IMG/VR virus record: IMGVR_UViG_3300036966_000119
Span: 64,001 to 128,000 of that record
Length of the DNA: 64,000 bases
From: a virus
Lineage: Duplodnaviria > Caudoviricetes
Strand: one strand, 5' to 3'
Part shown: piece by piece, positions 987 through 61,972 of the stretch
How positions within the stretch are numbered: the first letter of the stretch is position 1
Layout of the letters: every line of letters begins with the position of its first letter
Program-made: the position numbers and the translations under genes
Notes under the pieces: model-generated
The model's database searches: none
Told to the model about the DNA's origin: nothing
The model's input: only the letters and a program-made list of their open reading frames with translations

Positions 987-998
987 TATCATTCCGTT
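987..998 (-). promoter_or_regulatory. Candidate late promoter AACG-N6-TA
   Basis: AACGGAATGATA on the minus strand ~50 nt upstream of the 935 start; the same pattern precedes other structural operons. Confidence 0.35.
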
Positions 999-1024: not shown

Positions 1025-1132
1025 TTTTCTATGCTACCGGATTTAATGATATATAATTCCTATTATTTCACTTTTTCACATATATATTATTAATGTGAGA
1101 AAAGAAAGAATAGGTCTTTCAAATCTCTTTCC
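1025..1132 (+). promoter_or_regulatory. Repeated AT-rich (putative early) promoter plus 5' leader hairpin, copy A
   Basis: TTTTCTATGCTACCG...AATTCCTATTATTTCA-N8-CATATATATTATTAATGTGA, then GAAAGA-ATAGG-TCTTTC stem; near-identical to 32248-32358. Confidence 0.65.
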
Positions 1133-1153
1133 AAATTTAAAGGAGGAATTAGT

Positions 1154-1348
1154 ATGACAAATAAGAAATTAACTAAGAAGGTTGTAAGATGGGAGAAGAA
1201 GCACCCTAACCTCACAGCTGCATGCGTTTATGTAACAGCCGGATCTTTTGTTCTCAGAGTAGTTAGCTCAATCATAGGTGGCGCGGTAGCGGCTAAGACG
1301 ATAAAGGAAGTTCGCAATGGTGTTAACGAGTCATTGATGACCTCGTAA
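1154..1348 (+). CDS. Small basic/hydrophobic membrane peptide (EKKHP family), 64 aa
   Basis: AAGGAGG RBS; KKLTKKVVRWEKKHP followed by a hydrophobic segment; paralog at 32410-32652. Confidence 0.75.
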   Translation: MTNKKLTKKVVRWEKKHPNLTAACVYVTAGSFVLRVVSSIIGGAVAAKTIKEVRNGVNESLMTS

Positions 1349-1400
1349 ATGACGACGAAGATGTCGTTGACGTAAAAGTCGAGGAGAATTAAATAAAGAG

Positions 1401-1435
1401 AAATAACCCGCATAAGCGGGTTATTTTTTTTTTTT
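1401..1435 (+). terminator. Intrinsic terminator
   Basis: AAATAACCCGC-ATAA-GCGGGTTATTT followed by a long T tract. Confidence 0.85.
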
Positions 1436-1451
1436 GATTTTTCCATACTGG

Positions 1452-32190: not shown

Positions 32191-32247
32191 GATAATCCCC
32201 CTCCTTTCTAATAGAATCATATATGTATATGTATTCTATAATCGTTG

Positions 32248-32358
32248 TTTTTCTATGCTACCGATAAAAGGTATGTAAATTCCTATTATTTCATATTTCT
32301 ACATATATATTATTAATGTGAAGAAGAAAAGAAAGTGAGCTTTCACCTCTTATCTTCT
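32248..32358 (+). promoter_or_regulatory. Repeated AT-rich (putative early) promoter plus 5' leader hairpin, copy B
   Basis: TTTTCTATGCTACCG...AATTCCTATTATTTCA-N8-CATATATATTATTAATGTGA, then GAAAG-TGAG-CTTTC stem. Confidence 0.65.
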
Positions 32359-32409
32359 GATATAAATTACCGCAAGTGGCACGAAGCGGTTTATGTGCTG
32401 GAGAATACC

Positions 32410-32652
32410 ATGAATAAGAAGATTAATAAGGCAACAAAGAAGTTCACAAAGAAGATCGTAAAGATGGAGAAGAAGCATCCTGTCGCAACAACCGCAATCA
32501 TTATCGCTGATGGCGCAGCAACAGCAACTGGTATCGTGATGGGTGGTATCTATGCATGGAGAAATAGGAATGTTCTTAAGAACCTCCGTAACAATCAGAC
32601 ACCAGAGCCACAGGTTTCTCCTACTGGAGATCCTAATGCAGCAACAGTATAA
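32410..32652 (+). CDS. Small basic/hydrophobic membrane peptide (EKKHP family), 80 aa
   Basis: GGAG RBS and ATG at 32410; KKFTKKIVKMEKKHP plus a hydrophobic segment; paralog of 1154-1348. Confidence 0.75.
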   Translation: MNKKINKATKKFTKKIVKMEKKHPVATTAIIIADGAATATGIVMGGIYAWRNRNVLKNLRNNQTPEPQVSPTGDPNAATV

Positions 32653-32660
32653 GCAATAAA

Positions 32661-32700
32661 ATTGAGGGGCCCATTTCTGGGCCCCAATATATTTTTTTTT
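32661..32700. terminator. Bidirectional terminator
   Basis: GGGGCCCA-TTTC-TGGGCCCC plus T tract, between convergent genes. Confidence 0.85.
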
Positions 32701-44656: not shown

Positions 44657-47600
44657 ATGGCTGATGAGATTCTGCTTAATAACTATTCTGATGATAGTCA
44701 GATAAAAAAGTTCATGCGAGATGAGTTAGCGCCAAGAGTCTTTCATGACATTCCATTGAATGTTCTCAATACAGGTTTCTTCTCTCTCGTCAGTGAGTAT
44801 ATCTCACAGATAACCGAACAGCTTGGTTTTACATCTTCATTCTATTTCAATGAAGCATTCATAACCAAAGCAGTTTTGCCAGATTCTATATATGCTGAAG
44901 CTGCTATATTTAATCTGGGTTATTCATTCGCAACACCTGCATCAACAAACTTTCTGCTTGAGTTAAAGATAGAAGATATCTATAATAACTCAGTATTCAA
45001 TGCAGACAATGGTTTGTATGAATTCGTGCTTGATAAGAACACAAAGTTCAATCTTCCTGAAGGATTCGTATATTCTCTTGATTATGATATATTAATTCAA
45101 TACAAGGATATTGCAACATCAAGTATGGATGCATCTATACCGGCATGGAACATCCAATACATCAACAGAAACGAAGCAAATATGTGTGCAACAAATAAAA
45201 ACGTTTACATCACATATCGTGTTACTGATGTTTGGTTATGTTTATTAATCCAAGCAAACGAATATGAGCGTGAAGTTCATACTGTTGTAAATAATACAAC
45301 AACCGGTATACCAAATGAAGACACAGTAATCATGTGTCAGAATCATATTGCTGGATTTGATATCAAGTATATCGACAGCAAGGGAAATGCGCAGTATCTT
45401 CAGAGAGACCATATCCTTACTATACATGATACTATTGAGGATAATGCTCCATATGTTAACTATATCATGGACAACCCACAGACTATCCGTTTCATGTGGC
45501 AGTTAAGTGGTTCACGTTTCTTCGTTCCTGAAATGAACTCTTCATTTGAAATAACCATATACACATGTCATGGTAAATCAGCTAATGCTCCTAACTACAA
45601 GAATGATCAACAGCCACAGGTCATCACCGCAGCAAATACATATTCGAATAATGCAAATGTTATGAAAGCGGCATTTGTAATATCCGGATGTGTTGGTGGT
45701 GCTGATATTGGTACTGTTGAAACTACTCGTAGAGAAACCATTGAAGCATATAATACAGCAAATGTATTATCAACTGATCATGATCTTGATGAATGGTTTA
45801 AGACATTCTACTTCAAGAATATCCTTTATCCGTTCTTCTTTAAGAGACGTGATGATCCGTGGGGTAGAATATGGAGTGGTTATATGGCATTATCCGATAA
45901 TGATGATTATGTCTATAGGACCAATACTCTTCATGCTCATATACCATATGAAGTGCTGTATAATAACAATGATAACACTGTATCAAGCAATGAAATTATA
46001 ATTCCTCCTGGATGGATATGGGTATATATTGATGATACTACAAATCACAAGCATCTTTATACTGTTACTCCATATACCAAGGCAGATGGAAAAACAATTG
46101 AGACTGTAAATACATTGGCTTCAATTACAGATAAATTCGTATTTGCAAATCCTTTTGGTATGAGAATACAAAAGGATCCATTTGCTATAGGATACTTCAA
46201 TCCTTGGGTAAATGAATACGTCACTGCAACGAAAATAACAAGAGCCACATCTGCTGTTGTTGATAACAACAAGGAAGATATATCTTACATATATCATGCT
46301 TCTCCAATCATCACTAATATCAAGAGAACATATAAAGATGACCATTACACATTCACATCATATATTCTTCCTAATATACCTGGAATGAATAATGGTAAAA
46401 AGTTAGTTGAATATGTTCGTGCAAACGCTGTTGCTCCATACTTTGATCCTCAAACATGGAACTACATGAAACAGCCACTTGATGTATACGCTGAATCAAT
46501 TCCTCTTATGATACTCACTGAAGAAGATGGATACATTCCATTTGATCCAGAGAACACATATCTGTGTGTTGAACAGAAAGACCGCATCGATGATGATAAA
46601 TGGCGTTTCGGTAGAGTGTGGATTGAAGAAAAAATCTCAGCAGATGAAAAACGCCATATCGACATCAGACCATCCGCAGATAAGATGTATTTGTACGGTA
46701 CAAATGATATATGGGGAACTAATGGTGCATGTGCTCCATATTCAGTTGCTGTTTCTGGTGATACTGATATCGACATATTCCCATCACTTACATCAGAGGA
46801 TTTAATAACATTCGGCCGTATTCCTACTCAGAATTATTATGAGATGAGATTGGCTGAAACAGCACCTCGTGGTACAATAACGAAAATAGTTGTTGGAGAA
46901 GCAACTAAGACCGAATTGACAAAGTACGGCGAATCACAGCTTGTCAAGATAGGTAAGAGTTATTCAGCAGCAATATACATCAACGTATATTACGCCGTTA
47001 AAGATGATGAGACTCATACTATTACTGAAAAACAAGTAACATATACGATCTCGAATGCGGCGAATGTATACATGCCATACATGTGGAGTACAGAGCAAAG
47101 TGAACCAGGTAAATATGTATTCGAAATGGATCAGCTTGGTTCTACATCAATTATTCTGTATGCTGATATGAAACCATCTCCTGAAAGTGGCGCTATTGCA
47201 TATTACAGAATGCCTTTCAATTTATTACCTAAGAACGAACCCATGTTATATGTTCATTCAGAACAGCTCCCTCTTGCCCTGAATAACTTGCGTGTTATTA
47301 TGCATGCAATCGTAAATGGTTCAGAAACAGGACGTGTTGAAATGCAGCCTGTATCATTAGAATCTGATGGTTCTTATAAGTTTGAGACAACACTTTATCC
47401 GTTAACAGAGTTGCTTGATATTGATAACAGAATCAATATGGCTTCAATGAATAACGGTGGTGGTTCTTGGCAGGCTGTAAATGGTGAAGTTGTATCTGTT
47501 GATGCTTCTGATCCACAGTTCAAGATCACAATACTTGTTAGATCTGATGACGCCAACAGAGATTCCGAAATTGAAAAGGGCGATTCCTACACAGGATTCA

Positions 47601-52740: not shown

Positions 52741-55563
52741 TCACCAACTCCATCCGATGATAGTACCATTACCATCGGTTTGAGCCAATGGTTTTCCGGG
52801 TGGTATTCCTCTTGAGTTAGCAGTTCCGTCTCCGTATGAAGGTCTGTTGGTATAACGTAATAACCACTGCTTATTTGTAATATTTTTAATAGTAGTCATC
52901 GCAGTAGGTGTATCAGTCTTACCAACAATCTTTATCGGCATCCAGTTTGGTATAGGAGATTTAATCCACAGAGTCTGTGGACTTGTACCTGTAGCCTGTT
53001 CACACCATATGAAATTTTCACCATATGGAATGATTGCATTCAACGATTCCTGGAGGTAATAATGCTTCATGATTGTTGATGTTCTCAAATATTGACCAAA
53101 GTCTATTACTTGTATCTGAGCACCTACATTATTACCAGAAACATGATATCCTCTACAGATTGAAAGAACTATAGCACCACGAGTTGTATCACCTGATGTT
53201 GATTTGTATGTATATCTCAAATCGTAATTAACACGTGTTCCGAGATACTCATTATCAACATCAAAATCATTTAGACCCTGTGGCATTGTTGGATTATCCA
53301 TACGAATATAATGTGCTTTCTTAATATTACCCTTACCATATTCAGAGAATTTATATACGATGAATACATCATCAACAGATGTAAATCTTACATCACTGAG
53401 GCCAGAGTTGTATGGGATGTTATTTGTAAACGCTTCAGGAGTTCTACTTGAACCAGATGCAACGTTAACAACGAATGCATATGTTGAACCGTTTGTACAC
53501 CATACATAGTCTGAAACGCCATCAGAATGACCAAACATGAATGGTATATTTGATATTGTTGATGGGAATGGAATTGGTGAACCATCAACCGCACCAGTTG
53601 TGACATCATAGATGTACACCTTCTTGTCAGATGTACCAGCAGGAACATAAGCTACCTTATTAGTACCCCAAATACAACAAGACATCTTCCAGTCATGTTT
53701 ATGAGATACAAAGTTAGCACCACGTATATCAATGATAACACATTCTTCAACACCCGACTTAACTGATTGCATACAGATAATACCGGTACCGGATTCAGTT
53801 CTATAACATTCACTGTATGAATTAACAGTACCTGTGAATGGAAGTGTTTCTTCTGATGATGTTATAGTTGTTGGATCTTGACGACTTGTATCGGTTGCAA
53901 ATACTTTATTATTCACTGAATTGAACGTAATCAACCATTTTCCATATGTCATTGATTCAGTATTGGACGAGTCTCCTACTGTGTATACATACATAGATTC
54001 AGGGAAGTAAACTTTGTTTCCACGTAAGAACCATTTGTATGCATAGTTATCACAAGTATTTGCGATACCATATACGGTACCAAGACCACCATATGAAACG
54101 AATCCATTATCATCAGGAGTAGAACCGCCTGGTTCTAACAACTGGAATACGTCTGACTGACGTGTGAACTTTAAGTCGTTTGCTTTGACATTTGTTGATG
54201 TTATCCAGAAACGTTTCTGAGATGCTCCCTTAGAGGCAATATCATTGAAGTTATCAATGAATATCCATGTATCGAAATCCCAATAACTGTCGGTTGCATA
54301 TACTGACAATGAACCAACTGAGATTGAGAGTATGGGATCATCAGGACGTATATTCTGATAGAGATACGCAGTAATGATCTCTCTACCATTCCAGTAGTAT
54401 ATCGGAAGACCACATGTACTCTGTGCAGGTGTATCAGAATATAATCTATTATTTGGATTATAGACACTCATCTGAACATTCCATCCATCAGTCTTCCAGT
54501 CATACAGATAACCATTAGCTGTATTGAAATGTGTTATCGGAGGCCACTGATGTTTGTTGTAGTTAGCCGTATTTTCAGGAACCATACCAAACTTCTCAGA
54601 GAATCCAAGATGTTTGTAAGGTGTCTTTGACTGAAGATTGATAACATTCACTGCTTCAGGTGATGATAAGAATGCTGGTTCAAGAATACACATACCTGGT
54701 GTGTAATACAAGAAACCATCAATGTATCCTGAGTCATCTCCAGCACCATCGTACAATACAAATGAATTACAAATAGATGAATTTGTAAATACGTTTTCTT
54801 GTGTATTGTCGATTGTATGATAACCATCAGAATATGCATATGTCTGACGGTTGAATACTTTGTCATCACGTTTGTATGTGTATATGTTTGATTCAAACAT
54901 TCTGTGATACATGATTTGGTTGGTAGTAATCATAGTATATACATCATTAGCCCAACCGTTCTGAATCAGATGTTCATAGAATGATAAACACATATAAACT
55001 GTGATTATGAGTTTTTCATCCTGTTTCTTGACAATACTCGTACGAGTACCATCATCAGAATATATACGTGAATGTGTCCACAGATTATTCCATGCAGTAC
55101 CAATACCGTATTCTTCGATACGAGTATCTCCAGGGAAGTTATCGATATTCAAAGGATATTCGCATACCATGAATCTTGATATCAATGTAATTAAACCGTC
55201 ACCAGGCTCTGTTCCTGCGGCATAATACATTGGATATGCATAGTCCTTTGACGTGTCTGTGTTTGTAGCAGCAAGACCATTGAAGCAAACATTCTCAAGC
55301 TGTGTATCTTCTATTGTAACAGGAGTTGTACCCGAACCAACATAAAGCTTTACAGTACTTGATGCTTCAAATGCATTACCAAACTGATATACTGCTGAGA
55401 AACCAGTATTAGTCATTACATTCATACCATACTTCTCATCAGTAATATTTCCGTCTTTATCTACAGAGGTGAACACATAAATGTTTGATACTCCAGGATG
55501 GATCTTTTGTGAGTTCTTAACGAATTTCATTGCACGCATAAATATTTCGTCACGTTGGCTCAT
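52741..55563 (-). CDS. Large tail/receptor-binding protein, paralog A
   Basis: DKDGNITDEKYGMNVMTNTG, IEEYGIG, THSRIYSDDG..IVKKQ, ATDSYWD; GGAGGAGG RBS. Confidence 0.65.
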   Translation of the reverse strand: MSQRDEIFMRAMKFVKNSQKIHPGVSNIYVFTSVDKDGNITDEKYGMNVMTNTGFSAVYQFGNAFEASSTVKLYVGSGTTPVTIEDTQLENVCFNGLAATNTDTSKDYAYPMYYAAGTEPGDGLITLISRFMVCEYPLNIDNFPGDTRIEEYGIGTAWNNLWTHSRIYSDDGTRTSIVKKQDEKLIITVYMCLSFYEHLIQNGWANDVYTMITTNQIMYHRMFESNIYTYKRDDKVFNRQTYAYSDGYHTIDNTQENVFTNSSICNSFVLYDGAGDDSGYIDGFLYYTPGMCILEPAFLSSPEAVNVINLQSKTPYKHLGFSEKFGMVPENTANYNKHQWPPITHFNTANGYLYDWKTDGWNVQMSVYNPNNRLYSDTPAQSTCGLPIYYWNGREIITAYLYQNIRPDDPILSISVGSLSVYATDSYWDFDTWIFIDNFNDIASKGASQKRFWITSTNVKANDLKFTRQSDVFQLLEPGGSTPDDNGFVSYGGLGTVYGIANTCDNYAYKWFLRGNKVYFPESMYVYTVGDSSNTESMTYGKWLITFNSVNNKVFATDTSRQDPTTITSSEETLPFTGTVNSYSECYRTESGTGIICMQSVKSGVEECVIIDIRGANFVSHKHDWKMSCCIWGTNKVAYVPAGTSDKKVYIYDVTTGAVDGSPIPFPSTISNIPFMFGHSDGVSDYVWCTNGSTYAFVVNVASGSSRTPEAFTNNIPYNSGLSDVRFTSVDDVFIVYKFSEYGKGNIKKAHYIRMDNPTMPQGLNDFDVDNEYLGTRVNYDLRYTYKSTSGDTTRGAIVLSICRGYHVSGNNVGAQIQVIDFGQYLRTSTIMKHYYLQESLNAIIPYGENFIWCEQATGTSPQTLWIKSPIPNWMPIKIVGKTDTPTAMTTIKNITNKQWLLRYTNRPSYGDGTANSRGIPPGKPLAQTDGNGTIIGWSW

Positions 55564-61851: not shown

Positions 61852-61889
61852 CGCGATGACCTCCTTCTCTTTAAATATATATTACTAAT

Positions 61890-61972
61890 ATGAGCAAAGT
61901 GAATTGAAACGAGTTTCTTTTCGTTTTACCCATATAAATAATATATATATCTTGAAGGAGAAATAGTAGAAC
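61890..61972 (-). promoter_or_regulatory. Repeated AT-rich (putative early) promoter plus leader hairpin, copy C
   Basis: TTCTACTATTTC-N9-ATATATATATTATTTATATG, then GAAAAGAAAC-TC-GTTTCA. Confidence 0.55.

Follow-up and report, generated by a model that had tools for sequence, protein, structure and literature searches.

Morons of lambdoid phages, as Juhala and Hendrix are said to have described them in 2000, are promoter-gene-terminator units inserted between conserved genes, and classical morons are expressed from the prophage by the host RNA polymerase (RNAP). Small early phage membrane proteins include Imm and Sp of T4 and the lactococcal Sie proteins. In T4-like phages, a repeated module composed of an early promoter and a stem-loop (PeSL) is found upstream of orphan genes, and closely related phages come to differ by insertions, deletions and replacements through recombination between PeSLs (Arbiol et al. 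2010, PMC2839356; Comeau et al. 2014, PMC4122927). For phage AR9, the early promoter used by the virion RNAP was defined by dRNA-seq and primer extension as AAATATATATTAT-(6N)-G+1, and its use is chloramphenicol-independent (Lavysh et al. 2017, PMC5312081). A text search returned no paper tying PeSLs to RNAP-encoding jumbo phages.

The window analyzed here, a stretch of 64,000 nucleotides, corresponds to bases 64001-128000 of an IMG/VR record of 172,576 bp (36.8% G+C; referred to below as the contig), which represents a jumbo phage genome that is ~64% complete. The contig encodes the β subunit of a phage-type multisubunit RNAP (PF00562 above the cut-off; phrog_3295, E 5.5e-68), with best isolate matches, at ~27% identity, in the Bacillus jumbo phages PBS1 and AR9 and in Staphylococcus jumbo phages; the β′ domain PF00623 was not detected in the contig, which is only 64% complete. 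Megablast of the locus against isolate phages gave no match. An earlier note on this DNA had singled out two cassettes, A and B, as copies of one self-contained, moron-like and early-expressed unit that encodes a small membrane peptide and has possibly spread by recombination at its conserved upstream block. Our analysis makes it likely that A and B are two instances of a general regulatory cassette, which is shared by AR9-like jumbo phages of one clade found in rumen/gut metagenomes, is composed of an extended early promoter, a leader, a Shine-Dalgarno sequence, a small gene and a terminator, and is shuffled by recombination.

Architecture of the two cassettes and their predicted early promoter

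Copies A (window positions 1025-1437) and B (32249-32700) were read directly and then aligned. Three plus-strand stretches are identical in both: the 15-mer TTTTCTATGCTACCG (1025-1039 and 32249-32263), the 16-mer AATTCCTATTATTTCA (1055-1070 and 32278-32293) and the 20-mer CATATATATTATTAATGTGA (1079-1098 and 32302-32321), for which shuffled sequences lead one to expect 0.07 matches. The 15-mer is a distal upstream box (box1, with the core TATGCTACCG) located 40 nt upstream of the promoter core in copy A and 39 nt upstream of it in copy B, whereas the 16-mer forms a proximal upstream element (box2, CTATTATTT), which is also kept in an orthologue of copy B. The conserved block is followed in both copies by a purine-rich stem-loop leader, a Shine-Dalgarno sequence, one short ORF and an intrinsic terminator. 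Copy A has its 5′-terminal stem-loop at 1097-1127, a Shine-Dalgarno sequence AAGGAGG at 1140-1146 (read directly, with the ATG 7 nt further), a 64-aa ORF at 1154-1348 and a predicted terminator at about 1395-1437. The leader of copy B (32320-32391) comprises a 5′-terminal stem-loop (32320-32358) and a second hairpin (~32369-32390); it precedes an 80-aa ORF (32410-32652) and a bidirectional terminator (about 32666-32700) that also ends a converging 334-aa gene. The single architecture claimed for the two copies was thus found in full, from the three exact repeats and the leader hairpin to the paralogous ORFs and the terminators, and the alignments agree with the claim that conservation of the upstream DNA exceeds that of the hydrophobic part of the ORF.

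Cassette A is placed between a divergent 828-aa gene and a gene for a C2H2/DUF7487 endonuclease-like protein; the left flank on the side of the 828-aa gene (987-998, minus strand), outside the cassette, is kept in the relatives L033, L034 and L037. Cassette B lies between a 145-aa gene and the 334-aa gene. Between its box1 and the divergent 145-aa gene there is a conserved AT-rich stretch, ATATATGTATA-N-GTATTCT (32217-32243), which is kept in the orthologous region of the relative G002 and could serve as the promoter for this minus-strand gene.

The 11-mer ATATATATTAT, a 6-nt spacer and a G occupy positions 1080-1097 and 32303-32320, with predicted transcription starts at G1097 and G32320. This arrangement equals the experimentally defined early virion-RNAP consensus of AR9 (PMC5312081), the first two A's of the consensus reading CA, and it agrees with the proposal of early expression. 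A scan of the contig with the promoter core found further copies. Perfect cores number seven and are located at contig positions 47079-, 47163+, 54540+, 65080+ (copy A), 96303+ (copy B), 125948- and 134024+ (the sign marks the strand); ~8 intergenic cores have one mismatch. Start site, timing and polymerase are predictions drawn from the match of the block to the AR9 consensus, and the RNAP β subunit of this phage is only 27% identical to that of AR9. The core has remained letter-perfect despite this low identity of the polymerase subunit, and the upstream boxes that the clade has added offer a testable handle on promoter recognition by virion RNAPs.

The block might instead be a promoter for the host sigma-A factor (sigma-70 type), in which case the cassettes would be ordinary host-transcribed early genes such as those behind the PeSLs of T4-type phages, which use sigma-70 promoters. 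The block is AT-rich, and TATTAT or TATTAA hexamers within it could serve as a -10 element. However, a sigma-70 consensus scan found no -35/-10 hexamer pair at the block of either copy, the conservation takes the form of an unbroken 11-mer with a G fixed 6 nt downstream, as in the virion-RNAP promoters of AR9, and the phage encodes at least the β subunit of a multisubunit RNAP. We therefore regard a sigma-A promoter as very unlikely and continue with the reading as an AR9-type early promoter.

The upstream block had also been taken as a mark of the peptide cassettes. It is present at both of them, but it also precedes many unrelated genes in the contig and in the relatives. The cores at contig positions 47163, 54540 and 134024 are followed by the same GAGAAAAG... 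leader and by unrelated ORFs of 100, 67 and 142 aa, respectively, and the stretch from the promoter through the leader to the ribosome-binding site is identical between copy A and position 47163. In total, the composite of early promoter and stem-loop precedes small unannotated ORFs at least seven times in the contig and dozens of times in the relatives. Since the same core and leader precede unrelated ORFs, the block behaves as a general expression module that is not specific to the peptides, and the sequence comparison indicates that this clade uses it generally as its extended early promoter with leader.

Two divergent arrangements of such cores were also observed. At contig positions 47079-47180 (locus L004, outside the window), a divergent pair of perfect early promoters encloses two tandem TATGCTACCG boxes. 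Within the window, a divergent pair of early-type cores at 61874-61948 (61875+, with one mismatch, and 61948-, perfect), both with structured leaders, lies between minus-strand genes.

Upstream boxes and the 5′ leader

The TATGCTACCG box occurs exactly five times in the contig, always on the plus strand, and a sixth copy with one mismatch is found at contig position 133992. In five of these six copies, a perfect early core follows on the same strand within 60 nt, and two of the five are in tandem (47109/47126). The combination of the box with a downstream core was found at 22 loci in a scan of IMG/VR, four of them identical and unrelated and the others from relatives of the phage. The canonical layout in the relatives is TTTTC-TATGCTACCG-g-cTATTATTT-N-TTCTAC-core, which stands ahead of many different genes; a sequence resembling ATTATTT-N-TTCTAC precedes the core in many promoters of the relatives. 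The frequency of the box was determined in 38 non-redundant cores from six related records, picked by the core alone, with up to two mismatches allowed in the box. The box, TATGCTRCNG, was present at 17 of the 38 cores. Three classes of gap separated the box from the core (21-22, 30 and 39-41 nt), and the boxes were often in tandem, 17 nt apart. At contig position 54540 the cassette of this genome is without box1, and its orthologue in the relative L027 has it.

Comparison of the B promoter with its orthologue in G002, where the flanking protein is 75% identical, revealed no change in box1, the AATTCCTATTATTT element or the core, and diverged spacers between them. Such a pattern argues for a function of the boxes and against mere recent copying. 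The AR9 genome is without the box (three one-mismatch matches, versus four in the control), and a text search of the literature for the box sequence returned primer matches only. We read the TATGCTACCG boxes and CTATTATTT as putative clade-specific upstream promoter elements or factor-binding elements, although the boxes could be conserved for some reason besides promoter function.

A rival reading is that the box is a second, independent middle or late promoter, so that the genes would be expressed continuously, like those AR9 genes that have an early and a late promoter. The box consists of a T-rich part followed by TATG, and the non-virion RNAP of phiKZ starts at the G of TATG; moreover, continuously expressed AR9 genes carry two promoters (PMC5312081 and its discussion). 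This alternative seems highly improbable to us, because the 10-mer of the box is found almost only upstream of early cores and not before structural genes, and because the relatives of this phage are AR9-like, whereas the late motif of AR9, AACA-N6-TA/G, is not matched by the box. The reading as upstream elements of the early promoter is therefore preferred.

The leaders of both copies were predicted to fold, with -8.7 kcal/mol for copy A (1097-1127) and -20.9 kcal/mol for copy B (32320-32358) and z-scores of about -2.5 to -2.9; across the class of leaders, the z-scores are mostly -2 to -4. In all leaders of this class, pairing of the stem begins with the predicted +1 G. The leaders follow the pattern GAGA-AAA-inner stem-loop-inner stem-NNN-UCUC, which copy A exemplifies (GAGA-AAA-GAAAGA-loop-UCUUUC-AAA-UCUC), or the pattern GAAGA...UCUUC. 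The inner stems vary yet remain paired (GAAAGA/UCUUUC, GAAUAAG/CUUAUUC, GAAAUAG/CUAUUUC and GAAAG/CUUUC, in at least 12 leaders). RNAalifold analysis of eight leaders retained all nine base pairs, two of them through compensatory changes, and the first leader stem of copy B is retained with compensating changes in the G002 orthologue. A stem-loop at the extreme 5′ end shields mRNA from 5′-end-dependent decay in Firmicutes and in Escherichia coli, and by analogy the leader stem-loop probably protects the cassette mRNA in the same way.

The cassette peptides

The peptides of copies A and B are paralogous (~34% identity, blastp E ~1e-5 among six-frame ORFs of the contig) and are the sole two copies in the contig. 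The lengths of 64-80 aa given earlier for the ORFs are correct as read in the window, but the 64 aa of copy A represent a frameshifted allele in which a 79-aa protein is truncated. In comparison to all relatives, which encode 79-85 aa, copy A has lost one G at 1330/1331. Another frame still reads through the lost acidic tail of copy A as far as the TAA at 1390-1392. Either a genuine pseudogenizing mutation or an error in the assembly could account for the frameshift.

Word-based searches of 5.8 billion proteins identified nine B-type and eight A-type clusters, all of them metagenomic. A profile search of 1.84 billion representatives gave nine matches only, which are short unnamed proteins or of low complexity; they include four diverged members of the family (P0021 and P0023-P0025), in which the N-terminal motif is conserved. 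The search with the EKKHP-family profile thus revealed a narrow but real family with additional, more diverged members. In viral contigs, peptide B and the family alignment gave pattern matches, none of which was confirmed by tblastn, for which the peptides are too short. With a cut-off of E 0.01, neither Pfam nor PHROGs yielded a family for the peptides, peptide B had no tblastn match among isolate phages, and the best ESM Atlas score for the peptide, 0.83, is under the level counted as evidence. The statement in the earlier note that no known family was recognized for the peptides agrees with the null results from Pfam, PHROGs and isolate phages, and by sequence similarity the family is a new and small one of metagenomic members.

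The members share the N-terminal motif KK-x-x-KK-x-TKK-V-x-K-x-E-(K/R)-KHP-x-x-T, with a net charge of +6 to +9. The motif is followed by an apolar Gly/Ala-rich stretch of ~20 residues (Kyte-Doolittle 19-residue mean 1.6-1.9), by basic residues and by a variable tail (A type, acidic; B type, Pro/Gln-rich). An AlphaFold2 model built on a 14-sequence alignment (pLDDT 57) contains a helix at residues 3-22, a break at the His-Pro, a helix at residues 24-61 and a disordered tail. These features predict a single passage through the membrane, with the N-terminus inside and the C-terminus outside, which fits a bitopic protein but does not prove it. Given the moderate hydrophobicity, the conserved Asp or Arg in the segment and the low confidence of the AlphaFold2 model, insertion into the membrane is not certain.

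The peptides might alternatively be small basic regulators that bind nucleic acids or ribosomes, with a hydrophobic segment that serves for oligomerization. Strong conservation is confined to the polybasic N-terminus (net +6 to +9), conserved charges are found in the hydrophobic helix, whose score is near the Kyte-Doolittle threshold, and the member from G003 has a segment with Lys and Pro in this place. On the other hand, every member keeps an unbroken apolar stretch of ~20 residues with basic flanks, a polybasic flank at the N-terminus normally signals a positive-inside topology, and several other cassette cargos are plainly hydrophobic membrane peptides. We consider soluble regulators unlikely and retain the prediction of a single membrane-spanning helix. 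Concerning function, we can offer only a tentative guess of an envelope-directed early role, such as superinfection exclusion; the membrane roles suggested in the earlier note (superinfection exclusion, anti-defence or an early-infection compartment) are guesses of the same kind. The peptides form a small, fast-evolving family of predicted early membrane peptides and are candidate host-takeover or exclusion factors in rumen/gut jumbo phages.

Other early cassettes (contig 54540-54815, L027:7318 and L015:1471) encode very hydrophobic peptides of 64-81 aa that are unrelated to the EKKHP family. Small membrane peptides seem to be a common cargo of early cassettes.

The apolar helix carries an Asp (ADGAAT) in all B-type members and an Arg (F/L-R-V-V) in all A-type members, and both paralogues are present in this genome. 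Pairing of the A-type Arg with the B-type Asp within the membrane was considered as a general rule, and was weakened by the G002 orthologue, which is without a charged residue at this place. A broader proposal would have the TATGCTACCG boxes and CTATTATTT bind an injected or very early factor, or a polymerase subunit, define an immediate-early subclass of virion-RNAP promoters and double as recombination handles, with the two peptides (intramembrane Arg in A, Asp in B) acting jointly at the membrane at the site of genome entry. Taken as a whole this is improbable, but if true, it would give the multisubunit virion polymerases of jumbo phages their first described upstream regulatory element.

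Cassette turnover in relatives and comparison with known systems

Relatives of the phage have empty, filled and differently filled alleles at both sites. Site A is empty in L034 and L035 (72% protein identity, flanking genes 124 bp apart) and in L037 (55%, 97 bp). In L033, which belongs to the same sub-clade as L034, it holds tandem boxes, the same core, a GAGAAAAG leader, an unrelated 109-aa ORF and a terminator. Site B is empty in L030 (flanking genes 83 bp apart), is occupied in G002 (L077) by an orthologue of the family whose peptide is 41% identical, versus 75% for the neighboring gene, and in L029 contains two unrelated cassettes of 130-140 aa in tandem. The relatives that carry empty alleles are only 55-72% identical at the protein level, and the change may therefore have been a gain or a loss.

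The tandem cassettes of L029 (L029:5020-6400) encode proteins that are paralogous to each other, and they are parted by a duplicated 3′-end fragment of the neighboring 349-aa gene. The arrangement of these sequences suggests that the duplicated fragment is the footprint of a tandem cassette duplication.

A mosaic cassette is found at site A of L008 and L018, which are 96% identical to the genome analyzed here over 9-11 kb. It has A-type upstream DNA, then the leader, the second hairpin and the first 24 codons of the B type, and is again of the A type from EKKHP onwards. The breakpoints lie at the shared promoter core and at the EKKHP codons, indicating that recombination between dispersed copies has happened, as had been suspected for the conserved upstream block. 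Among the sequence comparisons made here, this mosaic allele provides the strongest evidence of cassette recombination.

The indel that distinguishes L033 from L034 is bounded by a short direct repeat, TTTCTAY, the left copy of which is the 5′ half of box1. The empty allele of L034 retains TTCTAT, and the filled allele of L033 reads TTTTCTAT at its left end and TTCTAC at its right end, so the microhomology at the junction is short, 6-7 bp. The position of this junction in the 5′ half of the box raises the possibility that the box is mainly a recombination or insertion site, similar to attC or to a homing target, and not a transcription element. In agreement with this, the five promoter-associated copies in the contig share the orientation of the promoter, the box often comes directly after a terminator, at cassette borders, and AR9 has the same core yet is without the box. 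The discrete distances from the core (21-22, 30 and 39-41 nt) and the tandem copies, however, fit a promoter or factor-binding element better; the box is retained before orthologous, stably placed genes, and no significant copy of the box occurs at the right end of cassette A (contig 65381-65480, up to five mismatches). We accordingly hold an insertion site to be unlikely and prefer an upstream element of the promoter. A degenerate second box1 at the right end of cassette A was rejected, as the stretch at 65381-65480 gave no match at up to five mismatches and matches with six mismatches are common. No attC-like inverted repeat was seen, and each cassette carries its own promoter, unlike integron-type cassettes.

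Directly after cassette A, at 1499-2251 on the plus strand, the window contains a gene for a 250-aa C2H2-zinc-finger/DUF7487 endonuclease-like protein (phrog_15137, 2.3e-38). This gene was considered as a mobile element that brought cassette A, and the idea was rejected, since the gene has the same position in all relatives. It is kept in relatives with an empty site too, and therefore looks like a resident gene and not like a mobile homing element.

A working model of the cassette can be proposed from these results. The virion-packaged multisubunit RNAP would read an extended early promoter, composed of ATATATATTAT-N6-G(+1), CTATTATTT and one or two TATGCTACCG boxes. The first bases of the 5′ leader would form a stem-loop, a probable guard against 5′-end-dependent mRNA decay, followed by a strong Shine-Dalgarno sequence and one small accessory gene, and the intrinsic terminator would insulate the cassette from its neighbors. 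The cargo of A and B would be paralogous peptides with a polybasic amphipathic N-terminal helix up to E(K/R)KHP, one Gly/Ala-rich transmembrane helix and a polar tail, made within minutes of DNA injection. The regulatory block of 70-110 bp is repeated around the genome and thus supplies homology for recombination, by which cassettes may be inserted, deleted, replaced and hybridized.

The comparison with morons is supported by the sequences of this genome and of the relatives: the cassettes are self-contained units at gene-block boundaries, with a promoter, a leader, a ribosome-binding site, an ORF and a terminator. Like morons, they are autonomous transcription units between genes that are adjacent in relatives (L034/L035, L037 and L030). 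They differ from morons in that they are found in a virulent-type jumbo phage and have an early promoter of the phage-polymerase type. The peptides resemble T4 Imm and Sp and lactococcal Sie in their size of less than 100 aa, in having a single or few transmembrane helices and in early expression (both predicted here); no sequence similarity to these proteins was detected with Pfam, PHROGs and tblastn against isolate phages. With the early promoters of AR9/PBS1 the cassettes have in common the core ATATATATTAT, the 6-nt spacer and the G start, often before isolated early genes that lie between genes of opposite orientation. AR9 differs in that it is without the TATGCTACCG box; the GAGAAAAG... 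leader hairpin and CTATTATTT are likewise features of the present clade.

The closest analogue of the cassettes is the PeSL of T4-like phages. In both systems a short, repeated, strong early promoter with a stem-loop and a Shine-Dalgarno sequence stands ahead of small orphan genes, motif-bounded insertions, deletions and replacements occur, and recombination between the copies shuffles the genes. The promoter is of the AR9 virion-RNAP type here and of the sigma-70 type in PeSLs, and the stem is part of the transcribed leader from +1 onwards, whereas the stem of PeSLs lies in or around the promoter and acts as a terminator or attenuator. The present cassettes additionally have a separate 3′ terminator and extra upstream TATGCTACCG boxes, and they are dispersed at block boundaries instead of being packed in hyperplastic regions. 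Because sigma-70 hexamers are missing and the stem begins at +1 in the leader, we classify the cassettes as an analogue of PeSLs and not as members of this group. The cassette phenomenon described earlier is therefore real, but with such a close published analogue it is not without precedent. Its concrete empty, filled, swapped and chimeric alleles are a material for studying the gain of early accessory genes in such phages, and the upstream boxes that this clade has added to a virion-RNAP promoter are worth following up alongside the mosaic and the empty and filled alleles. Promoter-mediated modular shuffling, known for the sigma-70-dependent T4-like phages, is extended by these cassettes to uncultured AR9-like jumbo phages that probably bring an RNAP of their own.
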